A stretch of 32,000 bases of DNA from Candidatus Saccharimonadota bacterium (GCA_016699205.1 CP064964.1:660001-692000), one strand, 5' to 3'; counted from the first letter of the stretch, positions 13,473-30,600 are shown. Numbers and translations are program-made. The notes: a model not told the origin generated them from the sequence alone.

Positions 13473-14099
13473 ACGCATGCGGCACGCATTGGGGCCCTGG
13501 AAGTCGGTTCAATTACGGGTTGGAACGATGCTGATTTTGGAGGCACGCTTCGTGTAGGGACATCGCTTCAAGTTGGTCGCCAGGGCATTTTTACATTAGG
13601 TTCGCTTGCTGTAGGTGCGACAAATACCACATCAACTATTGAGTACGCGGTCTCATCCACGCGCGGTGAGTTTTCGGGAGGATTGAGTGTTGGCGGTGTG
13701 TCTGTCTGTTTATCAAATGGAACAAACTGCCCTGCTGGCAGCGGAACAGACACCCTCCAGTCGGTCACCGCACGCGGCAGCTTCACGACCACCACCGCCC
13801 AGTTCTTTGGCGGCTTTGTGGCAGCTTCCTCTTCTGTCACAGGAACCTTTGCTGTTGCCGGAACAAGCACCTTTTGCGCGATGTCTATGTCGGTACCTCT
13901 ACCTACGATGTTTTCCTCAACTCCGACTTTGTCCTCGATGGCAATGATCTCTTTGCCGCTGACAATATTGGTTCGGTTTCTTCGATCTTCTCCAATGGCA
14001 TGCTTGTTACCGGAGAAACCGGTCCTACCTTGTTTGGAGACGGATTCATCAATCAGACCGATGGTGCACTCGTTATTTCGGCCAACAGCTCATTCTTGA
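12882..14099 (+). CDS. Gene 1, ORF fragment 4 of 6 (meaningful coding about 12879-13870): rest of LVIVD propeller 2, linker and junction box
   Basis: Frame 0. (V)VSQLTGPTCEDCIVSGRYLYSVDTNSFDIVDITNATAP completes the blade interrupted at 12885. After 13870 the frame-0 product turns into nonsense (FCAMSMSVPLPT...). The family sequence LLRDVYVGTSTYDVF continues in frame 2. Confidence 0.85.
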   Translation: MSQLTGPTCEDCIVSGRYLYSVDTNSFDIVDITNATAPRRVFSTTTSNGEKVRVQGSYAYAILGGNSVRVFDVTNATSPIQIASIALTSPSALAVSGRFLYVNNSTAVRVYDIADPNNPTLLGSVAIGNTPGEIDVAGKYLYITHNDLSVVDVSSSTNPRIVIQDLSLGSNGIDVYGRYGVVGISGGIQIIDFGGLETHAARIGALEVGSITGWNDADFGGTLRVGTSLQVGRQGIFTLGSLAVGATNTTSTIEYAVSSTRGEFSGGLSVGGVSVCLSNGTNCPAGSGTDTLQSVTARGSFTTTTAQFFGGFVAASSSVTGTFAVAGTSTFCAMSMSVPLPTMFSSTPTLSSMAMISLPLTILVRFLRSSPMACLLPEKPVLPCLETDSSIRPMVHSLFRPTAHS

Positions 14100-14470
14100 C
14101 CCAACCATCCATCAGCATCATTGCCGGTGATTTTACATCCGGTCTTGCCGGTGACGTGAATATCCTGGCTGGCAACGGTCTTGGCGGAAACCCGGCTGGA
14201 AATATCTACCTCACGCCAGGCGACTCCTTGGACAGCCGGGACATCTCTATCTCAATGCTGCAGGCACTTCCAATCAACCGCAATTCCGCTTTGAATCCAT
14301 CGGTGGAGGCATGGTGAGCTTAGAGGCTCCGAATACCGCTAACACCGAGAGCTTTGTCCTTCCATTTGCGGATGGAGCTTCTTCTACTGTCATTGGTACC
14401 AATGGCACTGGAATTCTTACCTTTGTCTCTGTTTGTTTGACGGATGGTACCAACTGTCCGGCTTCTTCTG
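13749..14470 (+). repeat. Dispersed direct repeat, copy C (partial; corresponds to A 7375-8096), carrying two of the frame-breaking 1-nt losses
   Basis: gacaccctccagtcggtcaccgcacgcggc...ccaactgtccggcttcttctggc is near-identical to copies A and B, apart from cc for ccc at 13870 and 14226 and a few substitutions. It diverges immediately after tcttctggc. Confidence 0.9.
13874..14317 (+). CDS. Gene 1, ORF fragment 5 of 6 (meaningful coding about 13871-14226)
   Basis: Frame 2. (L)LRDVYVGTSTYDVFLNSDFVLDGNDLFAADNIGSV...NIYLTPGDS is the same peptide encoded at 7497-7852 and 9549-9904. After 14226 it becomes DSRDISIS..., while GQPGHLYLNAAGTSNQPQFRF continues in frame 1. Confidence 0.8.
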   Translation: MRDVYVGTSTYDVFLNSDFVLDGNDLFAADNIGSVSSIFSNGMLVTGETGPTLFGDGFINQTDGALVISANSSFLTQPSISIIAGDFTSGLAGDVNILAGNGLGGNPAGNIYLTPGDSLDSRDISISMLQALPINRNSALNPSVEAW

Positions 14471-17400
14471 GCGGAGCCGACCTTAACTGGACCTTCAACC
14501 TCGCTGGAGACTTTGTGCGCAATGCGACCGGAACAACTGACATCGCCATTGGTTCTTCCACCCTCGGCAATGCTCCGTTTGTTTTCCTTAACAACACAAC
14601 CACTTCACGCTTCCTGATCGGCCAGAACTCCTCGACCGGAGCTGGAGCTGATCTCGTGATTGGAGCCACAACCTCAAGCGGCATGAATACGCTCTTCCAG
14701 CTCACTGGCGATGATCTCTTTGTGGCTGGCAATATCGGGTCTGCTTCCAGCGTGTATACCAATGGCGCGTTTATTGCTGGACCTGGATCTACGTACTATG
14801 GCAATGGTTACATCAACAAGAATGATGGATCGCTGAGGCTCTCAGCAAGCCTTGGCATTGTTGCTTCAAGTCGCCTTGATGCTCGATACCTAAATCGCTG
14901 GTTTCTTTCGCCGCTCTTGAAGACGGCTGTGAATGGCGGCAAGAGTGTTCGTGTTCCTGTCGGCAACTCTCCTACAAGCGCTGCTTTTGATGGCAGTCAT
15001 ATGTGGGTTGTGAATGCTGCTTCTAACAACGTTTCCAAGATTGATATTACGACCAATACCGTTGTTGCGACGACGACGGTTGGAACAAATCCTGTTGATA
15101 TTGCTTTTGACGGTACGTACATGTGGGTGGTCAACCAATCTTTTGGCAACGTTTCCAAGATTGATATTACGACCAATACCGTTGTTGCGACGACGACGGT
15201 TGGAACAGGTCCTAATGCTGTTGCCTTTGACGGAACACACATGTGGGTAGCTAACACAGGCTCTAACAACGTTTCCAAGATTGATATTACGACCAATACC
15301 GTTGTTGCGACGACGACGGTTGGAGCAGGTCCTAGCGGCATCGCGTTTGATGGCAGTCACATGTGGGTTGCGAATACTACTTCCGCTAATGCGAACAAGA
15401 TTGAGATCGTAAATAATACCGTTGTTGCGACGACGACGGTTGGAACAGGTGCTCTAGGCATCGCGTTTGATGGCAGTCACATGTGGGTTGCGAATCAAAC
15501 ACAAGATACCATCTCTAAAATTGATATCTCAACCAATACCGTTGTTGCGACGACGACCGGAGCGTCTCCTAATAGTCTCGCGTTTGATGGCACCCATATG
15601 TGGGTGACGAAGGGTATCGCAGCTGATGTTATAAAGATTGATGTTAATACCAACGCTGCTGTTGTCGTTACATCAACAGGTTCATTAGCTCCAAATGGCA
15701 TTGCGTTTGATGGCACCCATATGTGGGTGACGAACGGTGGTAACAATAATGTCATCAAGCTTCCTGTTGGTGGTGGGAATGGAGCGAATATGAACTTTGG
15801 CGTGAATCTTGTTCCTACGTCTAATGACACTTTTGATCTTGGTACGTCTGCGCTTGAATTTAGAAATGGTTTCTTTAGCGGAACCGTCTCTACGACCAAT
15901 GTTACCGTCGGAGGATTCAATGTTTGTCTCTCTAACGGTACCAACTGTCCTGCGTCTTCCGGCACCGAAACCCTCCAGTCGGTCACCGCACGCGGTAGCT
16001 TTACGACAACAACTGCCCAGTTCTTTGGAGGCTTTGTAGCTGCTTCATCGAGTGTGACCGGCACGTTGAATGTTGTTGGAAGTTTGAATGTCCTCGGCCG
16101 GTCGACGAATCGAGTGGTGTTTGAAACGCCTCTTGAACAGTACGTCACCGCAACAACAATGTTTACGACCATGTCGACATCAACGCTTGGAGACGATCCA
16201 AACAAGGTCATTGTTCAGGGTAACTATGCCTATATTCTTGCAAGCATCGGCACACCTCGTTTGTTGATCGCGGATGTGACCAATCCTTCTGTCGTTCAGA
16301 ATATTTCTACAACAACTTTGACTGGCGGTTCTAGCTGGGTAGATCTCGCGGTATCCGGTGACTATGCGTATACCGTTGACTATGCTGGAAACTTTAACGT
16401 CATTGATGTTTCGAACCGTAAAACTCCGCGACAGGTTTCTAACATTAATACGCTTTCAGGCCCGGGTGAGGTGGAAGTGGTCGGTAGCTATGCGTATATC
16501 ACTGAGTGGAATGGTGGGCGTATTGCCATCATTGATATTTCAAGCTCGACAAATCCCGTAATCGTCGGTCAGGGCCCAGCTGATATTTTTCCTTGGGGTA
16601 TCGAGATTCAAGGCAAGTATGCTTATACGATCGGTTACTATGCCTCTGAGCCATTTAGCATCTATGACGTATCAAGTTCTACGAATCCTGTTCGTCTTGC
16701 AAGCACGGCAGCTTTAAGCAATTTGGGCGGTAATGGCCAAGACCCGTTGCGAGTTCAGGGTCGATACGCTTATGTTGGCAGCTCTGCGTCCAATAATTTT
16801 TACGTGATTGATATCGTTAGCTCAACGAATCCGATCATTGTGTTCCAGGGTGCCGTTACGAGTACGGCCATCTCTAATTTCCGCGGCATGTCCGTGAACG
16901 GTGACTACGCCTATGTTTCAGAAGATGGTGCGGGAGAGATGCATGTCATTGACCTCTCCAATCCGCGCTACCCGCGTTATGCAAAGACACATGCATACGC
17001 TCCGCATACTTCTAACAAGGGCATCGATGTTGCGGGCCGCTATGCCTATGTCTTGCATGATGGATCTTCCGATGCCATGTCGGTTATCCGTATTGGCGGC
17101 ATGGAGACGAATGCCTTGCTTGCCCATAGCATGGAAGTTGGAACGTTGAATGTCCTTAGTACTGCTGACTTCCAGAACTTTGTCACGATTGGAACGGGTT
17201 TGTATGTCGGAAATTCTGGTATTCGCAGCGAAGGCGCTATCACGGTTGGTGGTGTAAAGGTCTGTCTTGAGGACGGAACAAATTGTCCTGGTGGTTCATC
17301 TGGTGGTTCTGACACGCTTCAGTCTGTTACCGCTCGCGGTTCGTTTACAACGACAACGGTTCAACTGTATGGCGGTTTCACAGCCTCTTCCGGTACGGTC

Positions 17401-20400
17401 ACGAGCACGCTCCAGGTTGGCGGACTTCTTACTTTCACGACGGCTTGGAGCCCATCGGGAACCATTGCTGTTGTCGGTAGCACGAGCACGCCGAGTGGTG
17501 CGTTTGAGGCTGTGATGCAGGGCAAGTATGTCTATACAACGACGAATAGTGCAACGAATGGTTTATATGTTACGGACGTATCCAATCCATATAAACCGCG
17601 CACCGTTGGCCATTTAAGTCTGTTTGATGATTCGAATGATTTTGATGTTTCTGGACGTTATGCCTATGTGGCTGATTCTGCGTCCAATATTTTGACTATT
17701 GATATCTCTAATCCGGCCCGACCGTTTGTTGCTGCAACGACAACGCTCTCTGCCGCTGCAATAACGGATATCGATGTTGTTGGCCCTTATCTCTATGAGC
17801 TTCAAGTCAGCTCCAACTTTCTCGATATCTATGACATCTCCAATCCGCTTGATATGCGATTGGTTGGCCGTGTCGACCATGGCTCGATTGGTGCGGATGA
17901 ACTGCGTGTTGTTGATGGCTATGCATATATCCATACGCAAGTAAATGGTATCGAGATCATTGATGTTAAGGATCCTTCGAAGCCAGTAATTGTCGATACG
18001 CTCGATTACACAGCGAATGCGTTCCGCGGCTTTGACGTATCTGGTGCTTACCTCTACGCACTCGCTAACGACACCTTGCATATTCTTGATATTTCTAACC
18101 CCACGAATGCCCGGGTAGTTTCAACCTCGACCGGTTTTAGCGCGTCCGGAAATGGCGCGGTGCGTATTGCAGGTAATACGCTTTACGTTGGAAATGACAA
18201 TAACTTCCACATCGTTGATGTCTCAAGTTCAACCAGACCGATTGTTCGAAACAGTGGGGCCGTGGGTACAGGTAGCGGTATCGTCTCGATCATTCCAAGC
18301 GGCCGCTTTGTCATCGTTCAGGCGGAAGAGCTCAATGTTGTCGATGTTGGTGGAATCGATGTGAGCGGAGCAAGGATTGGCGGAGCGTATATCGGCCAGG
18401 CGTATATCGCGGAGAACGTCACGGTTGGCCAGAACGCATCTATTCAAGGTGGTTTGAATGTAGGCATGAATGGCATCATGTCGCTTGGCGCGATTGGCGT
18501 GATGGCAACCAATACGACATCGACCTTCTGGGGCACGGTATCCACTACCCGTCTCTTTGTAAGCGGACGCGAGGTCTGTTTGGCTGACGGTACGAGCTGT
18601 TCATTCTCTGGCGGTTATGGAGCTGACGTAAACTGGATTTACAGTGCTTCTGGTGACTTCATGCGCACAACAACCGGCTCTACCGATGTCATCATTGGTA
18701 ACACCACTATTGCGACCGCTCCATTCCGCTTTGACGTTCAGACAACATCCAGTCGTCTCATTATCGGTCAGAATTCCAACGACCAAACCCGCGCCGACCT
18801 CGTGATCGGTGCCACGACTTCAAGCGGCATGAACACCGCGTTCCAGCTCACGGGTGATGATCTCTTTGTGGCTGGCAATATCGGTTCGGCATCGAGCGTG
18901 TATACCAATGGCGCCTTTATTGCAGGCAGCGGATCGACTTTGTATGGAGATGGATATATTGCCCGTACCACTGGCGACATCGTCGTGAGTGCTTCATCGA
19001 ATGTCTTTAGACCAAGTGCAAACAACACATTGAACCTCGGATCGGTCACAAGCTCATTCCGCAATATCTACGCGTCAGGAACTATTGCGTTTGGAACAGC
19101 AAGCGGATCGGCTCTCAACCTTGTTAACCCTGTCTTTACTCTTGCGACCAGCTCCAATTTCACCACGTTCCCGACCGGAGTCGCTGTCCGCAACAATATC
19201 GCCTATCTCGCCGACAGCAACTTTGTTGCACTCGACGTATCCAATCCTTCTAATCCGACCCTCATCTCAACCCTCGCTTCCGTGAATGCTAGCGACCTCA
19301 CGCTTGCCGGGGACTATGCCTATGTGGCTGCTGATGGTCTCAAGATTATCGACATTTCCCGACCGGGCCGTCCGGTTCAGGTCGGCTATTACGCTAACGG
19401 TCTCGGCAGCACCAAACCTGTTATCTCCGGCCAGTATGCCTATATGGGAGGCCAGGATTTCCAGATCGTTGATATCTCAAGTCCGACAGCTCCGACGTCT
19501 ACGGCGATTGTTACCCTTACAGGTTCTGTCGGAGGCGTTGATGTACAGGGCAAGTTTGCTTACGTTGCTAATGATACGACCTTCCGTATCTACGACATCA
19601 CGGACCCTTCCAATCCAACGGCAACTGGTACGCTCGGCGGCTTTAACAACCTTGGAACGGTGATCGTGTCTGGCCAATATGCCTACGTGGTTAATGATGG
19701 AGCCGATGTTGTTTCCATCGATATTTCGAACCCGGCTGCTCCGGTGTCACTCGATACCTATTCACCTGTCATTTCGCTTCAATTGAATGACATTACTCTT
19801 TCTGGCCGCTATCTCTACCTCTCCAAGCATGTTGATGGCATTGAAGTCCTTGATATTACTGATCCAAATGGCCTCATCAAGATCGCTGAATACAATACTC
19901 CGGGTGCCGCTTTTGGCATGATGATTTCTGGCAAGTACCTCTATGTGGCCGACTTTGGAAGCGGTCTCGCTATTCTTGATCTTGGTGGCGCCGATATCTC
20001 GAGTGCCAAGATCGGATCGCTTGAGATGGGCTCGGGTCAGGTTCTTAACAACCTCGATATCGGCGGACGTCTCAATGTGGCTGGAGGTATTCTTGCCGGT
20101 ATTGAAGGCGTGTTCTCACGAGGTCCGCTGGTTGGGTCATCGGTTATTGTGGGGGCGACAAGCTTTGCTACTTCGTCACGAACATCCCTTCTCGGCACGA
20201 CGGCTAACCTGTCCGTTCACAATGAGGTTGCCGTTATCTCACAAGGATTTGTTACTCCTGAGCTTCGCCTGTATGACGTTTCTCAACCTAAAAATCCGAC
20301 TTTGCTCTCATCAATTCTTGCCTCAACTGCAGGTAGTGAAGTGATTATCAAGGGAGATTATGTGTACGAAGTCGATACCACGATCCGAGCCATCGATGTT

Positions 20401-23400
20401 TCCAGTCCTTCGTATCCGGTTGTCGTTGCCTCAACTACCCTTTTAGCTCCTTATTCAGCATTCATCAGCGGACCTTACTTGTATGCCGCGCAAGATGCTG
20501 GTTTAGCCATCTTTGATATTTCAGATTCTCAATCTATCGAGTATCTCGATACGGCACCACTTCCGAACGTAGGACTTGTTGGCAGCAACCAGCGCAATGG
20601 TCTCTATGTCCGCGAACGCTTTGCCTATGTCACTGATATTGGTGCTGATAACTTCCACATTGTCGACATTCACGATCCGTATAATGCGACTTCCGTTGGT
20701 TATATCACTGGTTTTAGCAATCCGCAGGAAGTAGTTGTAAGCGAGGGCTATGCCTATGTGGTCGAGAGCTCGAGTAGTGAACTTAATGTAATTAATATTT
20801 CATCTTCTACCGGGCCGTTTATTGCTCGAACCATCTCTTCCGTGCAAGCTGGACCAACCGATCTTGCTTTGGCAGGTAACTATCTGTTTGTTGGAGGTTC
20901 GAGCGGCGTAACCGTCTTTGACGTTTCAAGCTCCACCAATCCACTTCAGGTCGCTACGGTACGCGCCGGAAGTGTTGTTGATCTTCAAATTGAAGGTAAG
21001 ACATTGCATGTTACGACGGCTAGCAACTATCTCATGTACGATATTCCGGGTCTTGTTGCCCCCGCCATGCTCGTCGGTTCCGTCCAGGCAGGCACAGGTT
21101 TGATTGAAAATGACTTCACGATCGGCAATCAGCTGTATGTCGGTGGAGGCATTCATGCCGGAGGCAGCATCATGGCACGCGGTTCCATCAGTGCCTCTGA
21201 TATCGATGTTTCCGGATTTGGTTCCGCAACAGCCGTACGTACCGTCCGTGTTGCCAGCCAATCAGTATATGCCGCCGGCGACTATGTCTATACGACGAAT
21301 GATGCGAGTACGCGCGTCCATCAGATTTCTATTGCCAACCCAGAGTTCGCAACCAATACGGCGGCTGGCGTGCTTTCCTCTGCAAGCGGACGCGACTTGT
21401 TTGTGGCTGGCGGCTATCTCTATGTCGCTCAAGGCACCAACGGCCTTGCGATCTTCAGTACGGAGAATGCTACCGGCGTTCTCAGACAGATCAGTACAAC
21501 CACCGGTCTTGGAACGGCTCATGAGGTATTTGTCTCCGGCCGCTATGCATATATTGCTGCGCTTGGTACGGGTGTGGAAGTGGTTGATGTCGGCAATCCG
21601 TATACTCCTGTCCTGAAGGAGACCTTTGATGGCAGCGGTACGAATTCCTCCCAAGGCGTTTATCTCCAGGACCGCTATCTCTATGTCGGTGATGGTGCTG
21701 ACGGTTTGCGTATTCTTGATGCCTCGGATCCGGTCGATCTCCGCCAGATCGGTATTCTTAATACGGCCGGTTCTGCAGAAAAGGTGTTCGTGTCAGAAGG
21801 CATCGCTTATGTCACGGATGATACCAACGGTCTTGTGATCGTCGATGTCTCCAACCCGGCAAGCCCTCGACTGCTCTCAACGGTTCCCCCGATTTCTAGT
21901 GGAAATATTTCCAATGTCACGAAAGCAGGTGACTATCTGTATGTGACATCGGATACGGGTTTGGGCAGCGTTGATAACTTCCGTGTCTTTGATGTTTCGA
22001 GTTCCACGCGTCCGGTTCTTGTGTGGGGCTTCAATGGTCCGGGGTCTCCGGCTGGGGTGGATGTGAAGGGACGCTATGCGTATGTCGGTGATGGCGAGCT
22101 CTTGCATGTGATCCGTTTACCGGGTGTTGACGCTCCTTCTGCGAATATCGGCTCTTTGTTTACGGGTCAATTGAATGTGGCCGAAGGTGCTGATATCGGC
22201 AGCTATCTCAATGTGAAGACGGGGCTCAGTGTCGGCAATGGCGGTATTCAGGTTCAGGGTCCTTCCACGATCACTGGTTCTTCCACGGATGCTATCCTCC
22301 GCGTTCGCAATGCCTACAACTCAAGTACCACGCCATATACGGCATGGGGTATCTTGGTTGATTCGATTGCTGTTTCACCTTCTTTCAACGTTCCTCCAGC
22401 TAACCGTGATTCTTGGTCGATGTATATCGATTATTCTTCTTCATCCAACCGTGGCGGTCTCTGTGTTGATGATGCAATCACTGGCGGCGGTTGTCCGATT
22501 TCCAACATTGGCGGCCGCTCGATCATGACGGATGCAGGTATCACGGCGAATGCCTTTGACTTGGCTGAGCGTTACTCGGTATCTGGTACGGCTGAAGGCG
22601 GAGATCTCCTTGTTCTTGAAACATCGACATCTACGATGGTTACGAAGCATTCGGGCACGATGTATGATCCGAAACTCATCGGTATCGTCTCCTTGAATCC
22701 TGGATTTGAACTCGGCTGGTTCAATCCTTCCAGTACCGATGTCGCTGTTGCCCTTACGGGCCGCGTTCCGACCAAGATCTCGATGAACAATGGTCCGGTT
22801 CAGATTGGCGATCCTCTTACGTCTTCCGATGTCCCTGGCTATGCCATGAAGGCGACGAAGCCGGGTATGATTATTGGTCACGCGCTTCAGAGCGCCTCTG
22901 CGACGGGTACGGCTGAGGTATTCGTTGCTGTCGGGTATTGGGCGGGATCCATCTTTAATACGGATGGTACGGTTGCTCTCCAGACCGATGACCTTACGAT
23001 CGATGCCGTGTCGATCGCTAGCTCAACTAATATCGCTGTTGATTCGTGGGGTCTCTCGTTCCGCGGTGCCGCATGGGATGAAGCTTCTTCAACGGTTGTC
23101 ACGAGCAGCTTTACCCTTTTGAACGATGTCATTACTGCTTCTAGCTCGATGTTCACGATTCAGAATACGAGTGGGACCTCGGTCTTCTCCATCGATGAGT
23201 TTGGTAAGGCGACGATTAACGGCGACCTCTCGATTGCCGGCAAGCTCTATCCTTCTGCCCGCGGCACGGTCCAGAGTGAGTACTACATCTTCTTGGATGA
23301 CATGCTTGGTCCGACATCGACCTACATGTCTACCAATGCTGATGGTTGGCAGTCGGAAGGTTCGTATGACTTGGCTGAACGTTATGTGTCTGAGCAGCCG

Positions 23401-24261
23401 CTGATTGAAGGTGAATTGGTGACGGTAAGCAGCGAGGGCGGACTCGCTATTGAGCGCGCTAGCGGCAACCAGAAGCCGTTCATGGGAATTGTCTCGACCA
23501 AGCCGGGCTTTGTTCTTGGCAAGCACTCGACGAGCACGTATCCGGTGGCGTTGGCTGGACGTGTTCCGACCAAGGTTTCGGATGCCAATGGTCCGATTGC
23601 TATCGGTGATCAGCTTACGGCTTCTGCTGACAATGCCGGTATCGCGGTTAAGGCTACGGGTGCCGGATATGTGGTCGGTATGGCTCTTGAGGCTTATCCG
23701 GGCGGCGACGATGACATGATCGAGGTGTTTGTACAGCCGGGTTGGACCAATGGTGATGGTTCAGTGATGCCGTCAGCTCCTTCATCGGGTGGCGGATCGA
23801 GCGCTCCGGCTGGAGTCACGACGGTTAAGCGCGGATTCGGTGATATCGCTGCCGGCGGAACTAAAGTGACCATCGAGTTTGATTCCATCGGTGCTTATCC
23901 GAATATCCAGGTAACGCAGTATGCCGGAGTTGAGGGCGGCTGGTATCTCAACAATGTGACGGACCATGGATTCGAGATCGTCTTGAATCAGGTTCAGTCC
24001 CATGATGTCCGCTTCGCCTGGAGAGTCGAGCCGACTCAAGCAGGGGAACAGGTCTACTATTCGGACAATACGCATGGCGCTATCGACTACCTGACCGGCA
24101 TTGGTCCGGGTACAGGAGTCGGGACCACGAGCTCGGATCCAGGTACTGATCCTGGGACCAGCTCGGGAACTGACCCGGGTACAGATCCAGGCTCCGGCAG
24201 CTCGACTGACCCCGGCACCGACCCAGGATCAGGCAGCTCAACAGACCCAGGCGCCCCTTAA
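14311..24261 (+). CDS. Gene 1, ORF fragment 6 of 6 (3316 aa in track; meaningful coding from about 14227): YVTN-like propeller, LVIVD propellers 3-7 and the C-terminal region
   Basis: Frame 1. The ATG at 14311 is the internal Met of ...ESIGGGMVSLEAPNTANTESF, which is also present at 7936 and 9988. The ORF is uninterrupted to the TAA at 24259-24261 and is followed by an intrinsic terminator. Confidence 0.9.
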   Translation: MVSLEAPNTANTESFVLPFADGASSTVIGTNGTGILTFVSVCLTDGTNCPASSGGADLNWTFNLAGDFVRNATGTTDIAIGSSTLGNAPFVFLNNTTTSRFLIGQNSSTGAGADLVIGATTSSGMNTLFQLTGDDLFVAGNIGSASSVYTNGAFIAGPGSTYYGNGYINKNDGSLRLSASLGIVASSRLDARYLNRWFLSPLLKTAVNGGKSVRVPVGNSPTSAAFDGSHMWVVNAASNNVSKIDITTNTVVATTTVGTNPVDIAFDGTYMWVVNQSFGNVSKIDITTNTVVATTTVGTGPNAVAFDGTHMWVANTGSNNVSKIDITTNTVVATTTVGAGPSGIAFDGSHMWVANTTSANANKIEIVNNTVVATTTVGTGALGIAFDGSHMWVANQTQDTISKIDISTNTVVATTTGASPNSLAFDGTHMWVTKGIAADVIKIDVNTNAAVVVTSTGSLAPNGIAFDGTHMWVTNGGNNNVIKLPVGGGNGANMNFGVNLVPTSNDTFDLGTSALEFRNGFFSGTVSTTNVTVGGFNVCLSNGTNCPASSGTETLQSVTARGSFTTTTAQFFGGFVAASSSVTGTLNVVGSLNVLGRSTNRVVFETPLEQYVTATTMFTTMSTSTLGDDPNKVIVQGNYAYILASIGTPRLLIADVTNPSVVQNISTTTLTGGSSWVDLAVSGDYAYTVDYAGNFNVIDVSNRKTPRQVSNINTLSGPGEVEVVGSYAYITEWNGGRIAIIDISSSTNPVIVGQGPADIFPWGIEIQGKYAYTIGYYASEPFSIYDVSSSTNPVRLASTAALSNLGGNGQDPLRVQGRYAYVGSSASNNFYVIDIVSSTNPIIVFQGAVTSTAISNFRGMSVNGDYAYVSEDGAGEMHVIDLSNPRYPRYAKTHAYAPHTSNKGIDVAGRYAYVLHDGSSDAMSVIRIGGMETNALLAHSMEVGTLNVLSTADFQNFVTIGTGLYVGNSGIRSEGAITVGGVKVCLEDGTNCPGGSSGGSDTLQSVTARGSFTTTTVQLYGGFTASSGTVTSTLQVGGLLTFTTAWSPSGTIAVVGSTSTPSGAFEAVMQGKYVYTTTNSATNGLYVTDVSNPYKPRTVGHLSLFDDSNDFDVSGRYAYVADSASNILTIDISNPARPFVAATTTLSAAAITDIDVVGPYLYELQVSSNFLDIYDISNPLDMRLVGRVDHGSIGADELRVVDGYAYIHTQVNGIEIIDVKDPSKPVIVDTLDYTANAFRGFDVSGAYLYALANDTLHILDISNPTNARVVSTSTGFSASGNGAVRIAGNTLYVGNDNNFHIVDVSSSTRPIVRNSGAVGTGSGIVSIIPSGRFVIVQAEELNVVDVGGIDVSGARIGGAYIGQAYIAENVTVGQNASIQGGLNVGMNGIMSLGAIGVMATNTTSTFWGTVSTTRLFVSGREVCLADGTSCSFSGGYGADVNWIYSASGDFMRTTTGSTDVIIGNTTIATAPFRFDVQTTSSRLIIGQNSNDQTRADLVIGATTSSGMNTAFQLTGDDLFVAGNIGSASSVYTNGAFIAGSGSTLYGDGYIARTTGDIVVSASSNVFRPSANNTLNLGSVTSSFRNIYASGTIAFGTASGSALNLVNPVFTLATSSNFTTFPTGVAVRNNIAYLADSNFVALDVSNPSNPTLISTLASVNASDLTLAGDYAYVAADGLKIIDISRPGRPVQVGYYANGLGSTKPVISGQYAYMGGQDFQIVDISSPTAPTSTAIVTLTGSVGGVDVQGKFAYVANDTTFRIYDITDPSNPTATGTLGGFNNLGTVIVSGQYAYVVNDGADVVSIDISNPAAPVSLDTYSPVISLQLNDITLSGRYLYLSKHVDGIEVLDITDPNGLIKIAEYNTPGAAFGMMISGKYLYVADFGSGLAILDLGGADISSAKIGSLEMGSGQVLNNLDIGGRLNVAGGILAGIEGVFSRGPLVGSSVIVGATSFATSSRTSLLGTTANLSVHNEVAVISQGFVTPELRLYDVSQPKNPTLLSSILASTAGSEVIIKGDYVYEVDTTIRAIDVSSPSYPVVVASTTLLAPYSAFISGPYLYAAQDAGLAIFDISDSQSIEYLDTAPLPNVGLVGSNQRNGLYVRERFAYVTDIGADNFHIVDIHDPYNATSVGYITGFSNPQEVVVSEGYAYVVESSSSELNVINISSSTGPFIARTISSVQAGPTDLALAGNYLFVGGSSGVTVFDVSSSTNPLQVATVRAGSVVDLQIEGKTLHVTTASNYLMYDIPGLVAPAMLVGSVQAGTGLIENDFTIGNQLYVGGGIHAGGSIMARGSISASDIDVSGFGSATAVRTVRVASQSVYAAGDYVYTTNDASTRVHQISIANPEFATNTAAGVLSSASGRDLFVAGGYLYVAQGTNGLAIFSTENATGVLRQISTTTGLGTAHEVFVSGRYAYIAALGTGVEVVDVGNPYTPVLKETFDGSGTNSSQGVYLQDRYLYVGDGADGLRILDASDPVDLRQIGILNTAGSAEKVFVSEGIAYVTDDTNGLVIVDVSNPASPRLLSTVPPISSGNISNVTKAGDYLYVTSDTGLGSVDNFRVFDVSSSTRPVLVWGFNGPGSPAGVDVKGRYAYVGDGELLHVIRLPGVDAPSANIGSLFTGQLNVAEGADIGSYLNVKTGLSVGNGGIQVQGPSTITGSSTDAILRVRNAYNSSTTPYTAWGILVDSIAVSPSFNVPPANRDSWSMYIDYSSSSNRGGLCVDDAITGGGCPISNIGGRSIMTDAGITANAFDLAERYSVSGTAEGGDLLVLETSTSTMVTKHSGTMYDPKLIGIVSLNPGFELGWFNPSSTDVAVALTGRVPTKISMNNGPVQIGDPLTSSDVPGYAMKATKPGMIIGHALQSASATGTAEVFVAVGYWAGSIFNTDGTVALQTDDLTIDAVSIASSTNIAVDSWGLSFRGAAWDEASSTVVTSSFTLLNDVITASSSMFTIQNTSGTSVFSIDEFGKATINGDLSIAGKLYPSARGTVQSEYYIFLDDMLGPTSTYMSTNADGWQSEGSYDLAERYVSEQPLIEGELVTVSSEGGLAIERASGNQKPFMGIVSTKPGFVLGKHSTSTYPVALAGRVPTKVSDANGPIAIGDQLTASADNAGIAVKATGAGYVVGMALEAYPGGDDDMIEVFVQPGWTNGDGSVMPSAPSSGGGSSAPAGVTTVKRGFGDIAAGGTKVTIEFDSIGAYPNIQVTQYAGVEGGWYLNNVTDHGFEIVLNQVQSHDVRFAWRVEPTQAGEQVYYSDNTHGAIDYLTGIGPGTGVGTTSSDPGTDPGTSSGTDPGTDPGSGSSTDPGTDPGSGSSTDPGAP
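14962..15778 (+). repeat. Seven tandem 120-nt (40-aa) units encoding a YVTN-like/NHL-like 7-blade beta-propeller
   Basis: The phasing is exactly 120 nt: atgtgggt recurs at 15001, 15121, 15241, 15361 and 15481. A 57-nt core (aacgtttccaagattgatattacgaccaataccgttgttgcgacgacgacggttgga) is exact in units 1-3. The peptide pattern G-x-x-P-x-x-[IVA]AFDG[ST][HY]MWV-x-N-x(4)-V-x-KID-x-x-TN-x-VV-x-TT resembles the 40-residue YVTN-family propeller repeat. That assignment is from memory of the family consensus and was not searched. Confidence 0.8.
16128..17106 (+). other. LVIVD-type 7-blade propeller 3 (gene 1; diverged paralogue of propeller 1)
   Basis: It begins PLEQYVTATTMFTTMSTSTLGDDPNKVIVQGNYAYIL and ends ...SVIRIGGME. 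It is colinear with propeller 1 blade by blade. Confidence 0.75.
17450..18360 (+). other. LVIVD-type 7-blade propeller 4 (gene 1)
   Basis: Blades: MQGKYVYTT, VSGRYAYVA, VVGPYLYEL, VVDGYAYIH, VSGAYLYAL, IAGNTLYVG, PSGRFVIVQ. Confidence 0.7.
19120..19995 (+). other. LVIVD-type 7-blade propeller 5 (gene 1); the identical copy in gene 2 is at 28921-29796
   Basis: Blades: VRNNIAYLA, LAGDYAYVA, ISGQYAYMG, VQGKFAYVA, VSGQYAYVV, LSGRYLYLS, ISGKYLYVA. Confidence 0.75.
20181..21057 (+). other. LVIVD-type 7-blade propeller 6 (gene 1), the variable cassette
   Basis: Blades: HNEVAVISQ, IKGDYVYEV, ISGPYLYAA, VRERFAYVT, VSEGYAYVV, LAGNYLFVG, IEGKTLHVT. It is bounded on both sides by sequence identical to gene 2. 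Confidence 0.75.
21235..22131 (+). other. LVIVD-type 7-blade propeller 7 (gene 1); the identical copy in gene 2 is at 31042-31938
   Basis: Blades: AAGDYVYTT, VAGGYLYVA, VSGRYAYIA, LQDRYLYVG, VSEGIAYVT, KAGDYLYVT, VKGRYAYVG. Confidence 0.75.
22558..22940 (+). other. C-terminal module DLAERY-1 (about 125 aa, unknown function)
   Basis: DLAERYSVSGTAEGGDLLVLE...KLIGIVSLNPGFELG...VALTGRVPTKISMNNGPVQIGDPLTSSDVPGYAMKATKPGMIIGHALQS...AEVFVAVGYW. It is colinear with the second copy at 23368-23750. Confidence 0.6.
23368..23750 (+). other. C-terminal module DLAERY-2 (a diverged duplicate of 22558-22940)
   Basis: DLAERYVSEQPLIEGELVTVS...PFMGIVSTKPGFVLG...VALAGRVPTKVSDANGPIAIGDQLTASADNAGIAVKATGAGYVVGMALEA...MIEVFVQPGWT. 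Confidence 0.6.
23820..24070 (+). other. Small C-terminal beta-rich domain, possibly H-type-lectin-like (weak call)
   Basis: VKRGFGDIAAGGTKVTIEFDSIGAYPNIQVTQYAGVEGGWYLNNVTDHGFEIVLNQVQSHDVRFAWRVE. The spacing 'V-x-[VI]-x-F...P-x-[VI]-x-V[TS]...N-V-T-x-x-G-F-x-I...F-x-W-x-[AV]' recalls my memory of the H-type lectin domain pattern. This is unverified. Confidence 0.3.
24121..24258 (+). repeat. Low-complexity (S/G)-TDPG microrepeat forming the extreme C-terminus of gene 1
   Basis: GTTSSDPGTDPGTSSGTDPGTDPGSGSSTDPGTDPGSGSSTDPGAP-stop. The 12-aa unit TDPGTDPGSGSS occurs twice in tandem. Confidence 0.85.
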
Positions 24262-24338
24262 ACCATAAATAGCTCTCTCATATATATAAGCATATGTAGT
24301 ACATCAATAATCCGGTCTTTCCCCAAAGACTTTTAATG

Positions 24339-24377
24339 AAAAGCCTGCCCCAAGACCACAGGGCAGGCTTTTTGCTT
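24339..24377 (+). terminator. Rho-independent terminator of gene 1
   Basis: There is a perfect GC-rich stem, gcctgccc (24343-24350) / gggcaggc (24361-24368), extended by A:T pairs (aaaa/tttt). The loop is 10 nt (caagaccaca), followed by a T-run (ttttt g ctt). It lies 78 nt after the TAA stop. A weaker hairpin, gtcttt-cccc-aaagac + tttt, lies just upstream at 24315-24334. Confidence 0.8.
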
Positions 24378-24424
24378 AAGTACACTTCTTAACAGTTTAT
24401 CCACAGCTTTTTATACTTATTATT

Positions 24425-24506
24425 TTAACTTTAGCTTAGCCATTTTTTACTATATATAGAGCATAAATTCACATAATCGCTTTCTATAAAGCGAAATTTA
24501 TAGAAT
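24425..24506 (+). promoter_or_regulatory. Candidate promoter region for gene 2 in the AT-rich spacer (low confidence)
   Basis: There are two sigma70-like possibilities. One is TTAACT (24425-24430), a 17-nt spacer, then TACTAT (24448-24453). The other is TAGAAT (24501-24506) without a good -35. A 9-bp inverted repeat, ttctataaa (24482-24490) / tttatagaa (24497-24505), overlaps the second -10-like hexamer. I found no clear Shine-Dalgarno sequence within 15 nt of ATG 24556. Confidence 0.25.
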
Positions 24507-24555
24507 AGTAGAGGCTTTTGTTTTCGCACTAGAAAGCAGATTCCACAGCGTTGAC

Positions 24556-24639
24556 ATGCCCCGTTCCCTTCGTCCTTTTTTGATCGCTTTCACCCTCCTT
24601 CTTGGTGGGTTGTTTCTGTCTTCCTCGGCTGTCTTGGCT
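24556..24639 (+). other. Predicted Sec-type signal peptide of gene 2 (28 aa; likely cleavage after VLA)
   Basis: MPRSLRPFLIAFTLLLGGLFLSSSAVLA|APQ. It has a basic n-region (R3, R6), a hydrophobic core and small residues at -3/-1 (A-V-L-A). The cleavage site is judged by eye only. Confidence 0.7.
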
Positions 24640-27600
24640 GCTCCTCAGATCAACAATCAGATCAACTACCAAGCCCGCCTCATGGATAGCTCTGGCTTCC
24701 CGGTGGCTGATGGAAACTACTCCGTCTATCTTTCGTTATACGACGCATCGACTGCAGGTACTCGTCTTTGGACAGCGACCGGTACCTTGGCGACTCCAAC
24801 GCCGCTCACCGTGAATGTCCAGAATGGTCTCTTCACCGTTCTTCTTGGCGATACGTCTGCTGCAGGGGGAAGTCAGAACACGCTCGATACCGTGAACTGG
24901 AACTCCGACCAGCTCTACCTTGGCGTCACTATCAACGCTGATGCTGAAATGAGCCCTCGAAAGCGCTTTGCTTCTGCTCCTCAGGCTTTCAATGCCAGAC
25001 AATTGCAGGGGATGTATGCCTCGAGTACGGCATCCGGGGGGCAAACACTCTTCACCCTCAATCAAACCCAGAACGATGCCGCTACGGGAACCCGTTCCAC
25101 TCTCGATGTTCGATCCAATGGAACCTCTAACTCCAATGACTTCTTGATTCGAGGCATCAATGATGCAAACGCGGTCGTCTTTTCCATCAATCGCCAAGGA
25201 TCAGTCACGTCTACCAATGTTTTTGTCAGTGGCCTGACAAGTTCCACCAACCTGAACGCCAACATCGCTTCCTTTGCGACCGCAACCGTTGCCGGACAGG
25301 GGATTTGTCTCTCCAATGGACAGTTCTGTTCCACGGGATCAGTCGCTGAAGCCGATACGCTTCAGACCGTATCCAATCGCGGAAGCTTTACCACCACCAC
25401 CCTTACCTTGTTTGGCGGGCTTACAACTTCCAACATCACAGCGACGGGTACTCTTAACGTGACGGGTGCTTCAACGCTTGCCGGAGTTACGTTTACGAAT
25501 GCGACGGGCATCAATGCAACGACAACCAATTTGTTTGCAGCGAATCTTCTTTACACGGCGTCGACGGGTACTTCTGCCTTTGTTTCCTCTTTTGGCTTTA
25601 CGACGGCTTCCGGTACCAGCTTCACGGCAAATATCGGTACGTTTGCAACGGCGACCGTGGCAGGACGAGGCGTCTGTCTTTCTGATGGTACTTTCTGTCC
25701 CGCATCGACAACGATTGAGTCTGACACGCTGCTTACTGTATCCAACCGCGGTTCCATTGCTACTTCAACATTGACGCTTTTTGGCGGGTTTGTGGCTGCG
25801 AGCTCGAGTGTGACGGGGACGTTGAATATTTCCGGGTCACTTTCTGTTACTGGAACCTCCAATCTTCAATCCGTTCACTTCACTCATGCGACGGGTACGA
25901 GCGTGACATCGACGAACGTTACGGCCAACATCGCTTCCTTTGCGACAGCGACCGTGGCGGGTCAGGGGATTTGTCTCTCCAATGGCGTGGGTTGTGTGCC
26001 GGCGGCAGGTGAAACCGATACACTTGCCATAGTTACCAACCGTGGTTCATTTGCGACAACTACGGTTACACTTTTTGGTGGACTTACAGTCTCAAACATT
26101 ATTGCGACTGGTACCTTGAACGTGAGCGGGGTGTCTTCTTTAGCTGGTCTTACATTTACGAATGCGACGGGTGTAAACGCTACGACGACGGGATACCTCT
26201 CTTTCAATGTCGCAAGCGGCACAACGTTACTAGCTAATGCACTTAATTTTGGTTCAGGTGCGGGAGGCTCGCTCAATATCACGACAGCGCTTACGGTTAA
26301 CGGTGTTAACGTGTGTTTGCAGGACAATACGAACTGTCCGGTATCGGGAGGGAGTGCTAGCGATGGCAACTGGGTATTCAACTCGAGTACGCAGCAGCTC
26401 TATCAGGTTACGACGACGCTTGATGTCCTGATTGGCGGTTCAAGCCAGCCAAGCTCGCCATTTGTTTTCCTGAATAACACTACTGATTCCCGTTTGGTGG
26501 TCGGTGGCGGAACAGCCTTGGCCGATGTGGTTATTGGCGCGGCGACATCAAGCGGTTTGAATACGGCTTTCCAGTTAACGGGGGACGACTTATTTGTTCA
26601 GGGAAATATTGGATCTGTTTCTTCCGTGTATACAAATGGCGCCTTTATTGCCGGAAGCGGATCAACAGTTTTTGGCAACGGCTATATCAACAAGAATGAT
26701 GGCAATCTCACGATTGATGCTTCTGGAGGTTTCATAACGCCTTCTGTCGATCTAGCCGTAAGTCTTGGATCGGTGACGAACCGTTATAATGGCGTGTTTG
26801 GTAATACAACAAGTACTCACACGACAACGACTAGCTCATTTGTATCGACAATGGGTTTTCAGTCGGCGACAGGTCTAACGCTCATTGCTAATACGGCCAC
26901 GTTTGCCACGGCCACTGTTTCAGGCCAGGCGATCTGTCTATTTAATGGTGTTGGTTGTCCCGTCAACAACGCGCTAACAGAAACCCTTCAGTCTGTTACG
27001 GCCCGCGGCAGCTTCACGACCACCACAGCTCAGTTCTTTGGCGGTTTTGTCGCTGCTTCCTCGAGTGTTACTGGTACGTTTGGGGTTGCAGGATTTTTGA
27101 ATGTAACTGGTTCTATGGACGTTGCTCTTACGGCAACTTCAAATCCTGTCTCGATTAAAGTTTCTTTTCCGAATGCAAATGATCGATCGAGCGGCTTGTC
27201 TATTTCTACTGTCGGGTCTTCAACGGGCTTAATTGCTCAAAAGATTCGAGCTTTTGGTCAGGATTTAAGCGCATTCGCGTTCACTGACGACATTACTGAT
27301 CCTGTTTCAGCGAGTGGCGCATTGGCGTATTACAGTCATACTAGCAATGCCTTTGCTCTTAGTTTGTTGGAGGCTGGTTTATCGATGTCTGATCTCACTC
27401 TCTACAATACGAACAATGGTGGAACCCAAAGTCGTGCCGCGGTAGAGATTAAGAATAATGCCGGTGTTTCATCTACGGCTGCTCTCAGACTGGCTAATGA
27501 CATCGATTCGGCCGGAATCGTACAACATGTCGGCGTTGGTTGTCCTGAGGGCCTTGTGTATGCAGAGCCTGGAAGTATTTTCTTCAACAATGGAGGCACG

Positions 27601-30600
27601 ACCGCGGGTACTCAAGCATATCTTAAAACTGCTGACGCTGGTTCGAATGGTTGGGTGGGTATCGTGACTTTGGACATGCTTGCATCTGGCCTCGACACCC
27701 TCCAGTCGGTCACCGCACGCGGCAGCTTCACGACCACTACGGCCCAGTTCTTTGGAGGGTTTGTAGCTGCTTCCTCCTCCGTCACGGGTACGTTTGCCGT
27801 TGTTGGTACAAGCACCCTTTTGCGCGATGTCTATGTCGGTACCTCTACCTACGATGTTTTCCTGAACTCCGACTTTGTCCTTGATGGCAATGATCTGTTT
27901 GCCGCCGACAATATTGGTTCGGTTTCCTCGATCTTCTCCAATGGCATGCTCGTTACCGGAGAAACTGATCCAACTTTATTTGGAAATGGATTTATTAAGG
28001 ATATTGGCGCTTTGGTTATCTCGACTCAATACGATTTCTTTAATCAACCATCCATTACTCTTCGAGCTAGTGATACCGTCTCTGCTCCCGCTGGTGATAT
28101 CAATATTCGAGCGGGTGACGCGAGCGGTGGCCCTCCGGCGGGTAATATCTATTTAACTCCTGGAGATGCTGATTTTGGTAACCCTGGTCATCTATATTTC
28201 CAGCCAGTCACAGGATCTTCTAATACTCCTCAGTTCCGCTTTACTTCTGTTGGCGGCGGCTTTATCAGTCTTGAATCTCCAAGTACTTCCAACTCTGTCA
28301 ATTTTGTCTTGCCGTTTGCCGATGGAGCTTCTTCTACCGTTATCGGAACAAATGGTTCTGGTGCGCTTACCTTTGTCTCTGTCTGTCTGACGGATGGGAC
28401 GAATTGTCCGGCAGGGATCGGATCTGATCTTAATTGGACCTTTAATCTTGCCAGTGATTTTGTACGTAATGCGACGGCTACAACGGATATTGCCATCGGT
28501 TCATCGACGATCGGCAATGCGCCATTCGCCTTCTTGAATAACACGACGACTTCACGTTTGCTGATCGGACAGAATACGACAACCGGAGCCCGCGCCGACC
28601 TCGTGATCGGTGCCACGACTTCAAGCGGCATGAACACCGCGTTCCAGCTCACGGGTGATGATCTCTTTGTGGCTGGCAATATCGGTTCGGCATCGAGCGT
28701 GTATACCAATGGCGCCTTTATTGCAGGCAGCGGATCGACTTTGTATGGAGATGGATATATTGCCCGTACCACTGGCGACATCGTCGTGAGTGCTTCATCG
28801 AATGTCTTTAGACCAAGTGCAAACAACACATTGAACCTCGGATCGGTCACAAGCTCATTCCGCAATATCTACGCGTCAGGAACTATTGCGTTTGGAACAG
28901 CAAGCGGATCGGCTCTCAACCTTGTTAACCCTGTCTTTACTCTTGCGACCAGCTCCAATTTCACCACGTTCCCGACCGGAGTCGCTGTCCGCAACAATAT
29001 CGCCTATCTCGCCGACAGCAACTTTGTTGCACTCGACGTATCCAATCCTTCTAATCCGACCCTCATCTCAACCCTCGCTTCCGTGAATGCTAGCGACCTC
29101 ACGCTTGCCGGGGACTATGCCTATGTGGCTGCTGATGGTCTCAAGATTATCGACATTTCCCGACCGGGCCGTCCGGTTCAGGTCGGCTATTACGCTAACG
29201 GTCTCGGCAGCACCAAACCTGTTATCTCCGGCCAGTATGCCTATATGGGAGGCCAGGATTTCCAGATCGTTGATATCTCAAGTCCGACAGCTCCGACGTC
29301 TACGGCGATTGTTACCCTTACAGGTTCTGTCGGAGGCGTTGATGTACAGGGCAAGTTTGCTTACGTTGCTAATGATACGACCTTCCGTATCTACGACATC
29401 ACGGACCCTTCCAATCCAACGGCAACTGGTACGCTCGGCGGCTTTAACAACCTTGGAACGGTGATCGTGTCTGGCCAATATGCCTACGTGGTTAATGATG
29501 GAGCCGATGTTGTTTCCATCGATATTTCGAACCCGGCTGCTCCGGTGTCACTCGATACCTATTCACCTGTCATTTCGCTTCAATTGAATGACATTACTCT
29601 TTCTGGCCGCTATCTCTACCTCTCCAAGCATGTTGATGGCATTGAAGTCCTTGATATTACTGATCCAAATGGCCTCATCAAGATCGCTGAATACAATACT
29701 CCGGGTGCCGCTTTTGGCATGATGATTTCTGGCAAGTACCTCTATGTGGCCGACTTTGGAAGCGGTCTCGCTATTCTTGATCTTGGTGGCGCCGATATCT
29801 CGAGTGCCAAGATCGGATCGCTTGAGATGGGCTCGGGTCAGGTTCTTAACAACCTCGATATCGGCGGACGTCTCAATGTGGCTGGAGGTATTCTTGCCGG
29901 TATTGAAGGCGTGTTCTCACGAGGTCCGCTGGTTGGGTCATCGGTTATTGTGGGGGCGACAAGCTTTGCTACTTCGTCACGTACAGGTATCTCGAGTAAC
30001 GGCAAGCAGATCGCCGTACATAATGGGATTACAGCCATTTATGACGGTGAACTTATTACCTCGTCTCAGCTTGTCTATAATATTTCTGACCCGGTGGTTC
30101 CGGTAAATATTGCAAATATTCTTGCTGCAAATGATGTAGGAGATCTTGTATTTAAAAATGATTACCTTTACCAGGTTGGCGCAACGATTAACGTGTACGA
30201 CATATCAAGTCCATCAAGTCTTGAGCTCGTTGCGACATCTACTGGTAATGCGCCTTATGCCGCTTTTCTCTCAGGTGGTTATCTCTATGTTACTCGAGAT
30301 GCGAGATTGGCTATTTATGATATTTCTGATGCTACGCGTCTAACTGAACTAGGGACCGCGCAGCTCCCGTGTACTCTTTGTCTTGTTGGCAGCAACCAGA
30401 CGAATGGCTTGTATGTGAAAGAGCGCTATGCATACATGACGGATATTGGAACCGATAATTTTTATATTATCGATGTAAGTGATCCGTATTCACCGACGCA
30501 TACTTCCTATATTTCGGGTTTTAGTAATCCTCAAGGTGTCGTTGCAGAAGGGAACTATGCTTATATGGTTGAAAGCGGCTCCAATGAACTTACTATCATT

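Follow-up and report, generated by a model that had tools for sequence, protein, structure and literature searches.

How can two neighboring genes be identical at every position on both sides of one protein domain and yet differ greatly within it? This question is raised by a 32,000-nucleotide (nt) stretch of DNA from Candidatus Saccharimonadota bacterium (GCA_016699205.1 CP064964.1:660001-692000; hereafter the window, with positions counted from its first letter), in which two genes in tandem encode giant proteins with several beta-propellers made of LVIVD repeats. We compared the two genes with each other and with public sequences, predicted the fold of the domain in question, and examined the age of its divergence. 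We found that the domain, a predicted propeller designated P6, has diverged for a long time under purifying selection and that its flanks have no differences at all; thus, the identical flanks, and not the divergent block, are the anomaly. On balance, we favor interlocus gene conversion between tandem paralogs that left one propeller unconverted.

Direct comparison showed that 18788-20180 of the upstream gene and 28589-29981 of the downstream gene, gene 2, are the same at 1393/1393 positions (tract 1; offset 9801), and that 21058-22193 and 30865-32000 are the same at 1136/1136 positions (tract 2; offset 9807), i.e., there are 0 differences in the 2529 nt of both tracts together. A blastn high-scoring segment pair (18763-20184 versus 28564-29985) covers tract 1. 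Tract 2 reaches the window end, where the gene 2 copy runs off; thus, its length is a lower bound (at least 1136 nt). The block between the tracts measures 877 nt in the upstream gene and 883 nt in gene 2, and 355 of its 877 aligned columns are mismatched (59.5% nucleotide identity). In sliding windows of 30 nt, an identity of 1.0 gives way to 0.27 at 20181, and 0.7-0.8 gives way to 1.0 at 21057, so that both borders are steps without gradual decay. At the protein level the two versions of the block (alleles 1 and 2) are 53% identical overall; the first 50 codons reach 30%, the middle part 60-66%. The initial annotation, which was made from the sequence alone, had described two identical shared blocks with these offsets, step-like changes of identity at their edges, and an intervening segment in which about half of the residues match and the first ~60 match far less, and our comparison bears out all three descriptions. 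Chance cannot account for perfect identity over 2.5 kb next to a stretch of 60% identity. The alleles align collinearly with only two one-residue indels, and the longest run that they have in common within the block measures 18 nt. Divergence is highest in blades 1 and 2 (28% and 43% identity, respectively), and blades 3-6 are 59-68% identical.

The LVIVD repeat profile (Pfam PF08309) matched both alleles far above its gathering cut-off of 20.2 bits (allele 1, 68.1 bits, E = 4e-19; allele 2, 84.5 bits, E = 3e-24). For AlphaFold2 we used the translation of 19996-21315 (linker, allele 1 and linker) as the query, with an alignment that combined the propellers of the window and distant homologs; the fold prediction thus covers allele 1, and allele 2 was placed by its collinear alignment and the Pfam match. 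The model has 27 strands arranged as seven blades, with a predicted local distance difference test score (pLDDT) of ~90 or more over residues ~69-349 and of less than 50 in the flanks (residues 1-60 and 354-414). A closed multi-bladed propeller of LVIVD repeats is therefore predicted for the modeled allele, and the best PDB matches found by Foldseek were seven-bladed WD40 propellers (probability 1.00). As the divergent block corresponds to query residues 62/63-354, its borders lie within ~7 residues of the confidently folded domain on each side of the allele 1 model, which agrees with the earlier claim that the block covers precisely one domain. The further claim that both versions encode seven LVIVD blades gained a seven-blade model in the case of allele 1 and, in the case of allele 2, the LVIVD match and collinearity. 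Allele 2 has a Cys pair (LPCTLCLVG) at ~30370-30385, in a long loop of low confidence that connects blades 3 and 4; the aligned sequence of allele 1 (~20565) is LP-NVGLVG.

The silent sites of the block are saturated. The Nei-Gojobori method gave a nonsynonymous divergence (dN) of 0.39 and a synonymous divergence (dS) of ~2.0, which is saturated, and hence a dN/dS of ~0.2; in several sub-windows of the block dS could not be computed through saturation. The third codon positions are 39% identical, and four-fold sites of conserved residues are 35% identical, compared with 28% expected from composition, whereas in tract 1 the four-fold sites are identical at 285/285. Because the flanks have no differences and the silent sites of the block are saturated, the block and its flanks differ greatly in age. 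The block is an old divergence under purifying selection and not a recent diversification, and since both alleles stay under purifying selection, we propose that both are functional. In addition, the segment just upstream of tract 1 (18508-18786) is only 49% identical to gene 2 in amino acid (aa) sequence, and its silent sites are also saturated. As this adjoining segment is as diverged as the block (49% versus 53%), the divergence of the block looks like the background divergence of the paralogs and nothing special.

These data bear directly on the proposal of the initial annotation that diversifying selection acted on one propeller. More generally, a single propeller might have been the target of hypervariation after a recent duplication, through diversifying selection or a mutagenic system, and the general shape alone, a variable block between conserved flanks, fits this idea. 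We consider it very improbable in view of the saturated silent sites, the dN/dS of ~0.2, and the two codon indels. Moreover, the differences are spread evenly: the alleles are 51% identical in strands and 55% in loops (allele 1 model), and 44-59% identical whatever the conservation of the column across the family. The substitutions comprise 149 transitions and 206 transversions (ratio 0.72) and include all 12 types, and the mismatches that involve A number 81 and 102 in the two alleles, i.e., without adenine bias. Flanking repeats of the site-specific type were not found, nor was a reverse transcriptase or template repeat in the window. The dN/dS value and the spread of substitutions, taken together, gave the outcome that the annotation itself had set against diversifying selection, namely simple old divergence. 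Two specific systems were examined and rejected as well: a diversity-generating retroelement (355 mismatches of all 12 types, codon indels, and no sign of a reverse transcriptase in the window, which contains the giant genes and no others) and a site-specific exchange of the shufflon or integron type (only weak repeats at chance level, none of them at 20181, 21057, 29982 or 30864).

The block had also been described as one domain replaced in otherwise identical genes. This description did not hold, because upstream of 18788 the divergence of the two genes equals or exceeds that of the block: in the full alignment, the protein identity between them ranges from 18 to 87% there. As for the idea of the initial annotation that propeller 6 is a candidate specificity determinant of a variable surface fiber, the two proteins are much less alike in their N-terminal halves than in this one propeller. 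Furthermore, gene 2 is a mosaic of modules that match several places in the upstream gene. Its segment 27676-28395 has its best match at 7360-8070, the segment 28396-28635 at 14446-14688 (85% aa identity), and from 28589 on it matches the sequence from 18788 on with 100% identity. Within the first of these, a stalk segment (27676-27915 versus 7360-7593; DTLQSVTARGSFTTTTAQFFGG) has 98.7% protein identity in an enclosing DNA match of ~76%, which suggests that the stalk segment is under strong purifying selection.

Where did the two alleles come from? They are each other's best match (53%); the other propellers of the window are at most 33% identical to them, and the 150 best public giant homologs at most 36%. 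An exhaustive HMMER search of 1.84 billion representatives gave 490 matches below 1e-30, all with at most 36% identity. The matched proteins have 3000-6900 residues and many propeller and linker units, and the named ones are uncharacterized proteins of Patescibacteria, the closest with ~30-36% identity. When linker, allele 1 and linker served together as the query of a word-indexed search of 5.8 billion proteins, the best match was 27% identical. Because the propellers in the giant genes of relatives are ~26-37% identical to both alleles alike, no orthology could be assigned to them. In three relatives (loci L002, L003 and L004) the syntenic locus holds a single giant LVIVD gene (3285-5683 aa), followed by a gene for a TPR protein of ~800 aa. 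A fn3-like gene of ~1000 aa and ribosomal S20 lie near the giant gene in at least two of the three, and PolA and T4SS_pilin (PF18895) in L002 and L003. The first 548 aa of gene 2 are 35-76% identical to proteins of Candidatus Uhrbacteria and other Patescibacteria. As these relatives hold a single giant gene at the locus, the tandem pair is probably a lineage-specific duplication, and as the alleles are closest to each other, our comparison points to paralogs that arose by duplication in the lineage rather than imports from a distant source.

From these observations we propose the following history. Two tandem paralogous genes would encode giant secreted multi-propeller proteins in a Patescibacteria-like bacterium, and interlocus gene conversion, through homologous recombination of one gene with the other, may have made their 3' parts uniform in the very recent past. 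The homogenized parts would be the core of a stalk module, propeller P5 and linker L5 on one side, and linker L6 and propeller P7 on the other. P6 would have escaped and kept the ancient divergence of the paralogs. A run of 18 nt is too short for efficient strand exchange; thus, the diverged P6 may have offered no stretch of identity long enough for it and so may have acted as a heterology barrier. Products that mixed blades of two propellers only 53% identical would probably be selected against. The barrier and this selection, if both operated, would explain why the tracts end at the domain edges. At its left end, tract 1 begins at the start of a sequence island that is conserved in at least four stalk modules (72-79% nt identity), where a homology-guided exchange would be expected to resolve. 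Identity that includes silent sites and ends abruptly inside diverged genes, and two paralogous copies in one genome, here in frames 9.8 kb apart on one contig (assuming a correct assembly), are also the marks of interlocus conversion of the kind known from the bab adhesin genes of Helicobacter pylori (see below). The initial annotation, in naming cassette replacement or gene conversion, had thus chosen the right class of explanation for a mosaic with step-like borders at propeller edges.

Homogenization is not confined to P6's flanks. Positions 1-7356 consist of about five and a half head-to-tail units of 1326-1329 nt that are 97-98% identical, and further near-identical blocks in the window have 95.3%, 96.4% and 99.4% identity; the internal repeats in the giant genes of relatives are just 68-82% identical. 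We compared the GC content at third codon positions (GC3) in non-redundant coding windows of 300 nt across the whole window, with one copy per repeat family, and obtained 0.595 in homogenized and 0.468 in unique segments (Mann-Whitney p = 3.5e-4). At codon positions 1 and 2 the two classes do not differ. The GC3 is 0.41 in allele 1 and 0.36 in allele 2, compared with 0.52-0.53 in the flanks, as would be expected if GC-biased gene conversion had acted on the flanks alone. The 1326-1329-nt units are C-rich on the + strand (GC skew ~-0.25, GC3 0.70-0.78), and the 442-aa unit that they encode had no match in Pfam. In addition, a stalk module of ~726 nt occurs in three copies with 96-99.4% identity (13749-14472, 7372-8097 and 9376-10148), whose borders lie just past a conserved Cys loop (CLxDGTNCPxxSG).

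Several points weigh against conversion with one spared propeller. The zero differences in both tracts are awkward for two independent rare events and point either to one event or to frequent, ongoing conversion; a single event must skip 880 nt, and heteroduplex repair cannot do this across 60% identity. The flanks had presumably diverged before the conversion, so that the start of exchange at 20180 and 21058 is left unexplained. Just 2/3 visible junctions lie at domain edges, the one at 18788 being inside a stalk module (pLDDT 35 in its AlphaFold2 model). The GC3 contrast is correlative and comes from a single locus, and close relatives were not found in the public collections searched.

Some of these difficulties are avoided if the 3' regions were made identical by one recent duplication or conversion and the propeller of one copy was then swapped through the identical linkers. 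The donor would have been a third paralog at a distant site of the genome or, through DNA uptake, a different strain, and the borders would mark where donor and recipient differ. Such an import of a cassette explains the zero differences in both flanks and yields domain-precise borders without selection, and modules in this locus have demonstrably moved around, as the patchwork of gene 2 shows. We regard it as possible, though doubtful. Within the window, neither the alleles nor the flanks were found a third time, no further propeller allele with more than 36% identity turned up in the public collections searched, and the exact 46-mer of the left flank had no match in the metagenome contigs or genome contigs searched. 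The low GC3 of unconverted sequence is common to both alleles and is not a property of one. Moreover, the donor itself needs identical linkers around a saturated propeller, which moves the problem elsewhere. A bolder form of the idea, in which the propeller is an exchangeable module and a library of deeply diverged alleles between conserved linkers, kept by the population of this episymbiont in other strains or at silent sites beyond the window, is swapped into giant attachment fibers by recombination at the linkers and so changes the host surface to which the cell can bind, seems unlikely to us.

A repetitive locus also raises the question of whether the identity or the tandem layout was made by the assembler or polisher, through strain chimerism or short-read polishing in repeats. 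The locus is extremely repetitive, and there are five frame changes on the + strand, all of them -1 (2>1>0>2>>0; at ~2015-2519, ~4511-4525, ~12882, ~13869 and ~14225), in its most repetitive part. At the sites that could be compared with sister copies, a C is missing from a CCC run that is followed by T (ACCCTT, TCCCTT, ACCCTC). This suggests that the frame changes are systematic consensus errors of a long-read assembly; real pseudogenization is also possible. Consensus errors therefore appear to exist here, but an artifact as the source of the whole pattern has only a small chance of being correct in our estimate. Both copies lie within long intact frames, with 17.7 kb free of frameshifts, and each allele encodes a complete propeller whose reading frame continues into both flanks. 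A unique gene end, a hairpin, an AT-rich spacer, and the start of a gene with a signal peptide part the copies. Polishing may turn 99% into 100% identity; it cannot create a step from 60% to 100% at a domain edge.

If the frame changes are consensus errors, then there would be one gene running from before position 1 to 24261, with more than 8000 codons. The open frame that the initial annotation called 'gene 1' is most likely the 3' part of such a much longer gene, starting before the window and broken by the -1 frameshifts. Its N-terminus at ATG 14311 lacks a signal peptide and falls midway through a stalk module, and 13749-14472 is 99.4% identical to the in-frame segment 7372-8097 except for two 1-nt deletions in CCC runs. 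This stalk copy spans both the apparent 'intergenic gap' and the ATG. The ATG is thus probably not a true start, which makes the numbering of the propellers, including 'propeller 6', uncertain. Between the two genes proper lie a stop codon, a terminator-like hairpin and a spacer rich in AT (24262-24555), after which gene 2 has a new start. Simple tandem duplication was rejected as an explanation of the layout because unique sequence separates the copies. The features are collected in Table 1.

Table 1. Positions of the two giant genes, the identical tracts and the divergent block in the 32,000-nt window (HMM, hidden Markov model; ORF, open reading frame)
Feature	Position	Strand	Basis or remark
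Open frame of 3316 codons ('gene 1' of the initial annotation)	14311-24261	+	ORF list; LVIVD E = 1e-127
Gene 2	24556-32000, open to window end	+	Own start, signal-peptide-like N-terminus MPRSLRPFLIAFTLLLGGLFLSSSAVLAAPQ; LVIVD E = 4e-91
Identical tract 1, upstream gene copy	18788-20180	+	Conserved core of stalk module, LVIVD propeller P5 (~19147-19989, HMM) and linker L5
Identical tract 1, gene 2 copy	28589-29981	+	Nucleotide comparison and blastn
Divergent block, allele 1; predicted seven-bladed LVIVD beta-propeller P6	20181-21057	+	Pfam, AlphaFold2, Foldseek
Divergent block, allele 2; same propeller	29982-30864	+	6 nt longer; Cys pair PCTLC in loop
Identical tract 2, upstream gene copy	21058-22193	+	Linker L6 and propeller P7 (~21148-22131, HMM)
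Identical tract 2, gene 2 copy	30865-32000	+	Ends at window end
Terminator-like hairpin followed by U-run	24337-24374	+	-23.5 kcal/mol, z = -4.5, 0/200 shuffles as stable

A consensus terminator scan missed the hairpin of Table 1, probably due to its 10-nt loop. The spacer contains one promoter-like site (24389-24417, 10/12 matches). In the upstream gene, tandem units of ~120 nt at 14982-15738, 70-75% identical, encode a YNCE-like (YVTN-type) beta-propeller (PF21783, E = 1.3e-14), a second propeller type within the upstream protein. The C-terminal ~710 residues of the same protein (22129-24258) contain an internal duplication of a ~110-aa segment with the pattern …DLAERY…G(I)VS..PGF.LG…A(L)(A/T)GRVPTK…NGP..IGD.LT.S…, are 39% identical to the C-terminus of the relative P0082, and end in a tail rich in Thr, Asp, Pro, Gly and Ser. 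Sequence searches of Pfam, NCBIfam and PDB with the stalk, the N- and C-terminal regions and the 1327-nt unit gave no match above the curated cut-offs.

Patescibacteria live attached to other microbes, and the recognition of their hosts is largely obscure. Giant secreted multi-propeller proteins are plausible attachment devices. The present locus suggests that their genes evolve as mosaics of modules, in which recombination keeps most of the sequence identical while one folded domain stays different. Functional differences between the two fibers may thus be sought in the block propeller and in the very different N-terminal halves. The locus also provides a clean natural case in which the ends of recombination tracts match a structural domain.

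The LVIVD-repeat family (PF08309) was first described in surface proteins of Methanosarcina acetivorans, according to the description in PMC2447325. The proteins studied here share with LVIVD-repeat cell-surface proteins a common repeat family that forms a beta-propeller in secreted or surface proteins; unlike those first described, they carry several propellers on stalk modules and have thousands of residues.

Silent-cassette antigenic variation is known from Neisseria pilE/pilS, Borrelia vlsE, Anaplasma msp2 and Treponema tprK, in which one expression site is combined with silent partial cassettes, and the segments that vary are short loops at the surface, rich in recent nonsynonymous changes. 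As in these systems, the variable segment here lies between conserved sequence that serves as homology for recombination. Unlike them, the present genes are full-length and look expressed, and the variable segment is a whole domain of 290 aa with an ancient divergence under purifying selection. We rejected a system of this kind because each copy is part of a long, uninterrupted frame, gene 2 begins at a start of its own with a signal-peptide-like N-terminus, and the window holds no further copy. Recent nonsynonymous changes at exposed sites, the mark of a variable segment of the silent-cassette type, were not seen either, given the dN/dS of ~0.2 and the similar identity in strands (51%) and loops (55%).

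In theoretical work by Walsh and by Teshima and Innan, a selected segment reportedly can escape the concerted evolution of duplicated genes. The present locus resembles that model in that conversion would keep the paralogs identical save for an island whose divergence blocks conversion; unlike in the general population-genetic model, the island here is bounded by a structural domain. To our knowledge, concerted evolution with such an escape has not been described for giant surface proteins of Patescibacteria. The locus adds a case of a known evolutionary process, in a protein family that has received little study, and is not a new mechanism.

The nearest described analog is the babA/babB/babC family of H. 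pylori, paralogous adhesin genes that, as described in PMC4552749, have near-identical ends and a divergent, paralog-specific middle and undergo gene conversion between loci. Near-identical sequence around a divergent middle is thus common to both. The products of the bab genes are beta-barrel outer-membrane proteins of ~700 aa, and their loci are dispersed, whereas the genes studied here are in tandem and encode proteins of more than 2500-8000 aa. The present case, known from sequence alone, further differs from bab in that the N-terminal halves are not homogenized and the divergent island is one complete internal beta-propeller among several.

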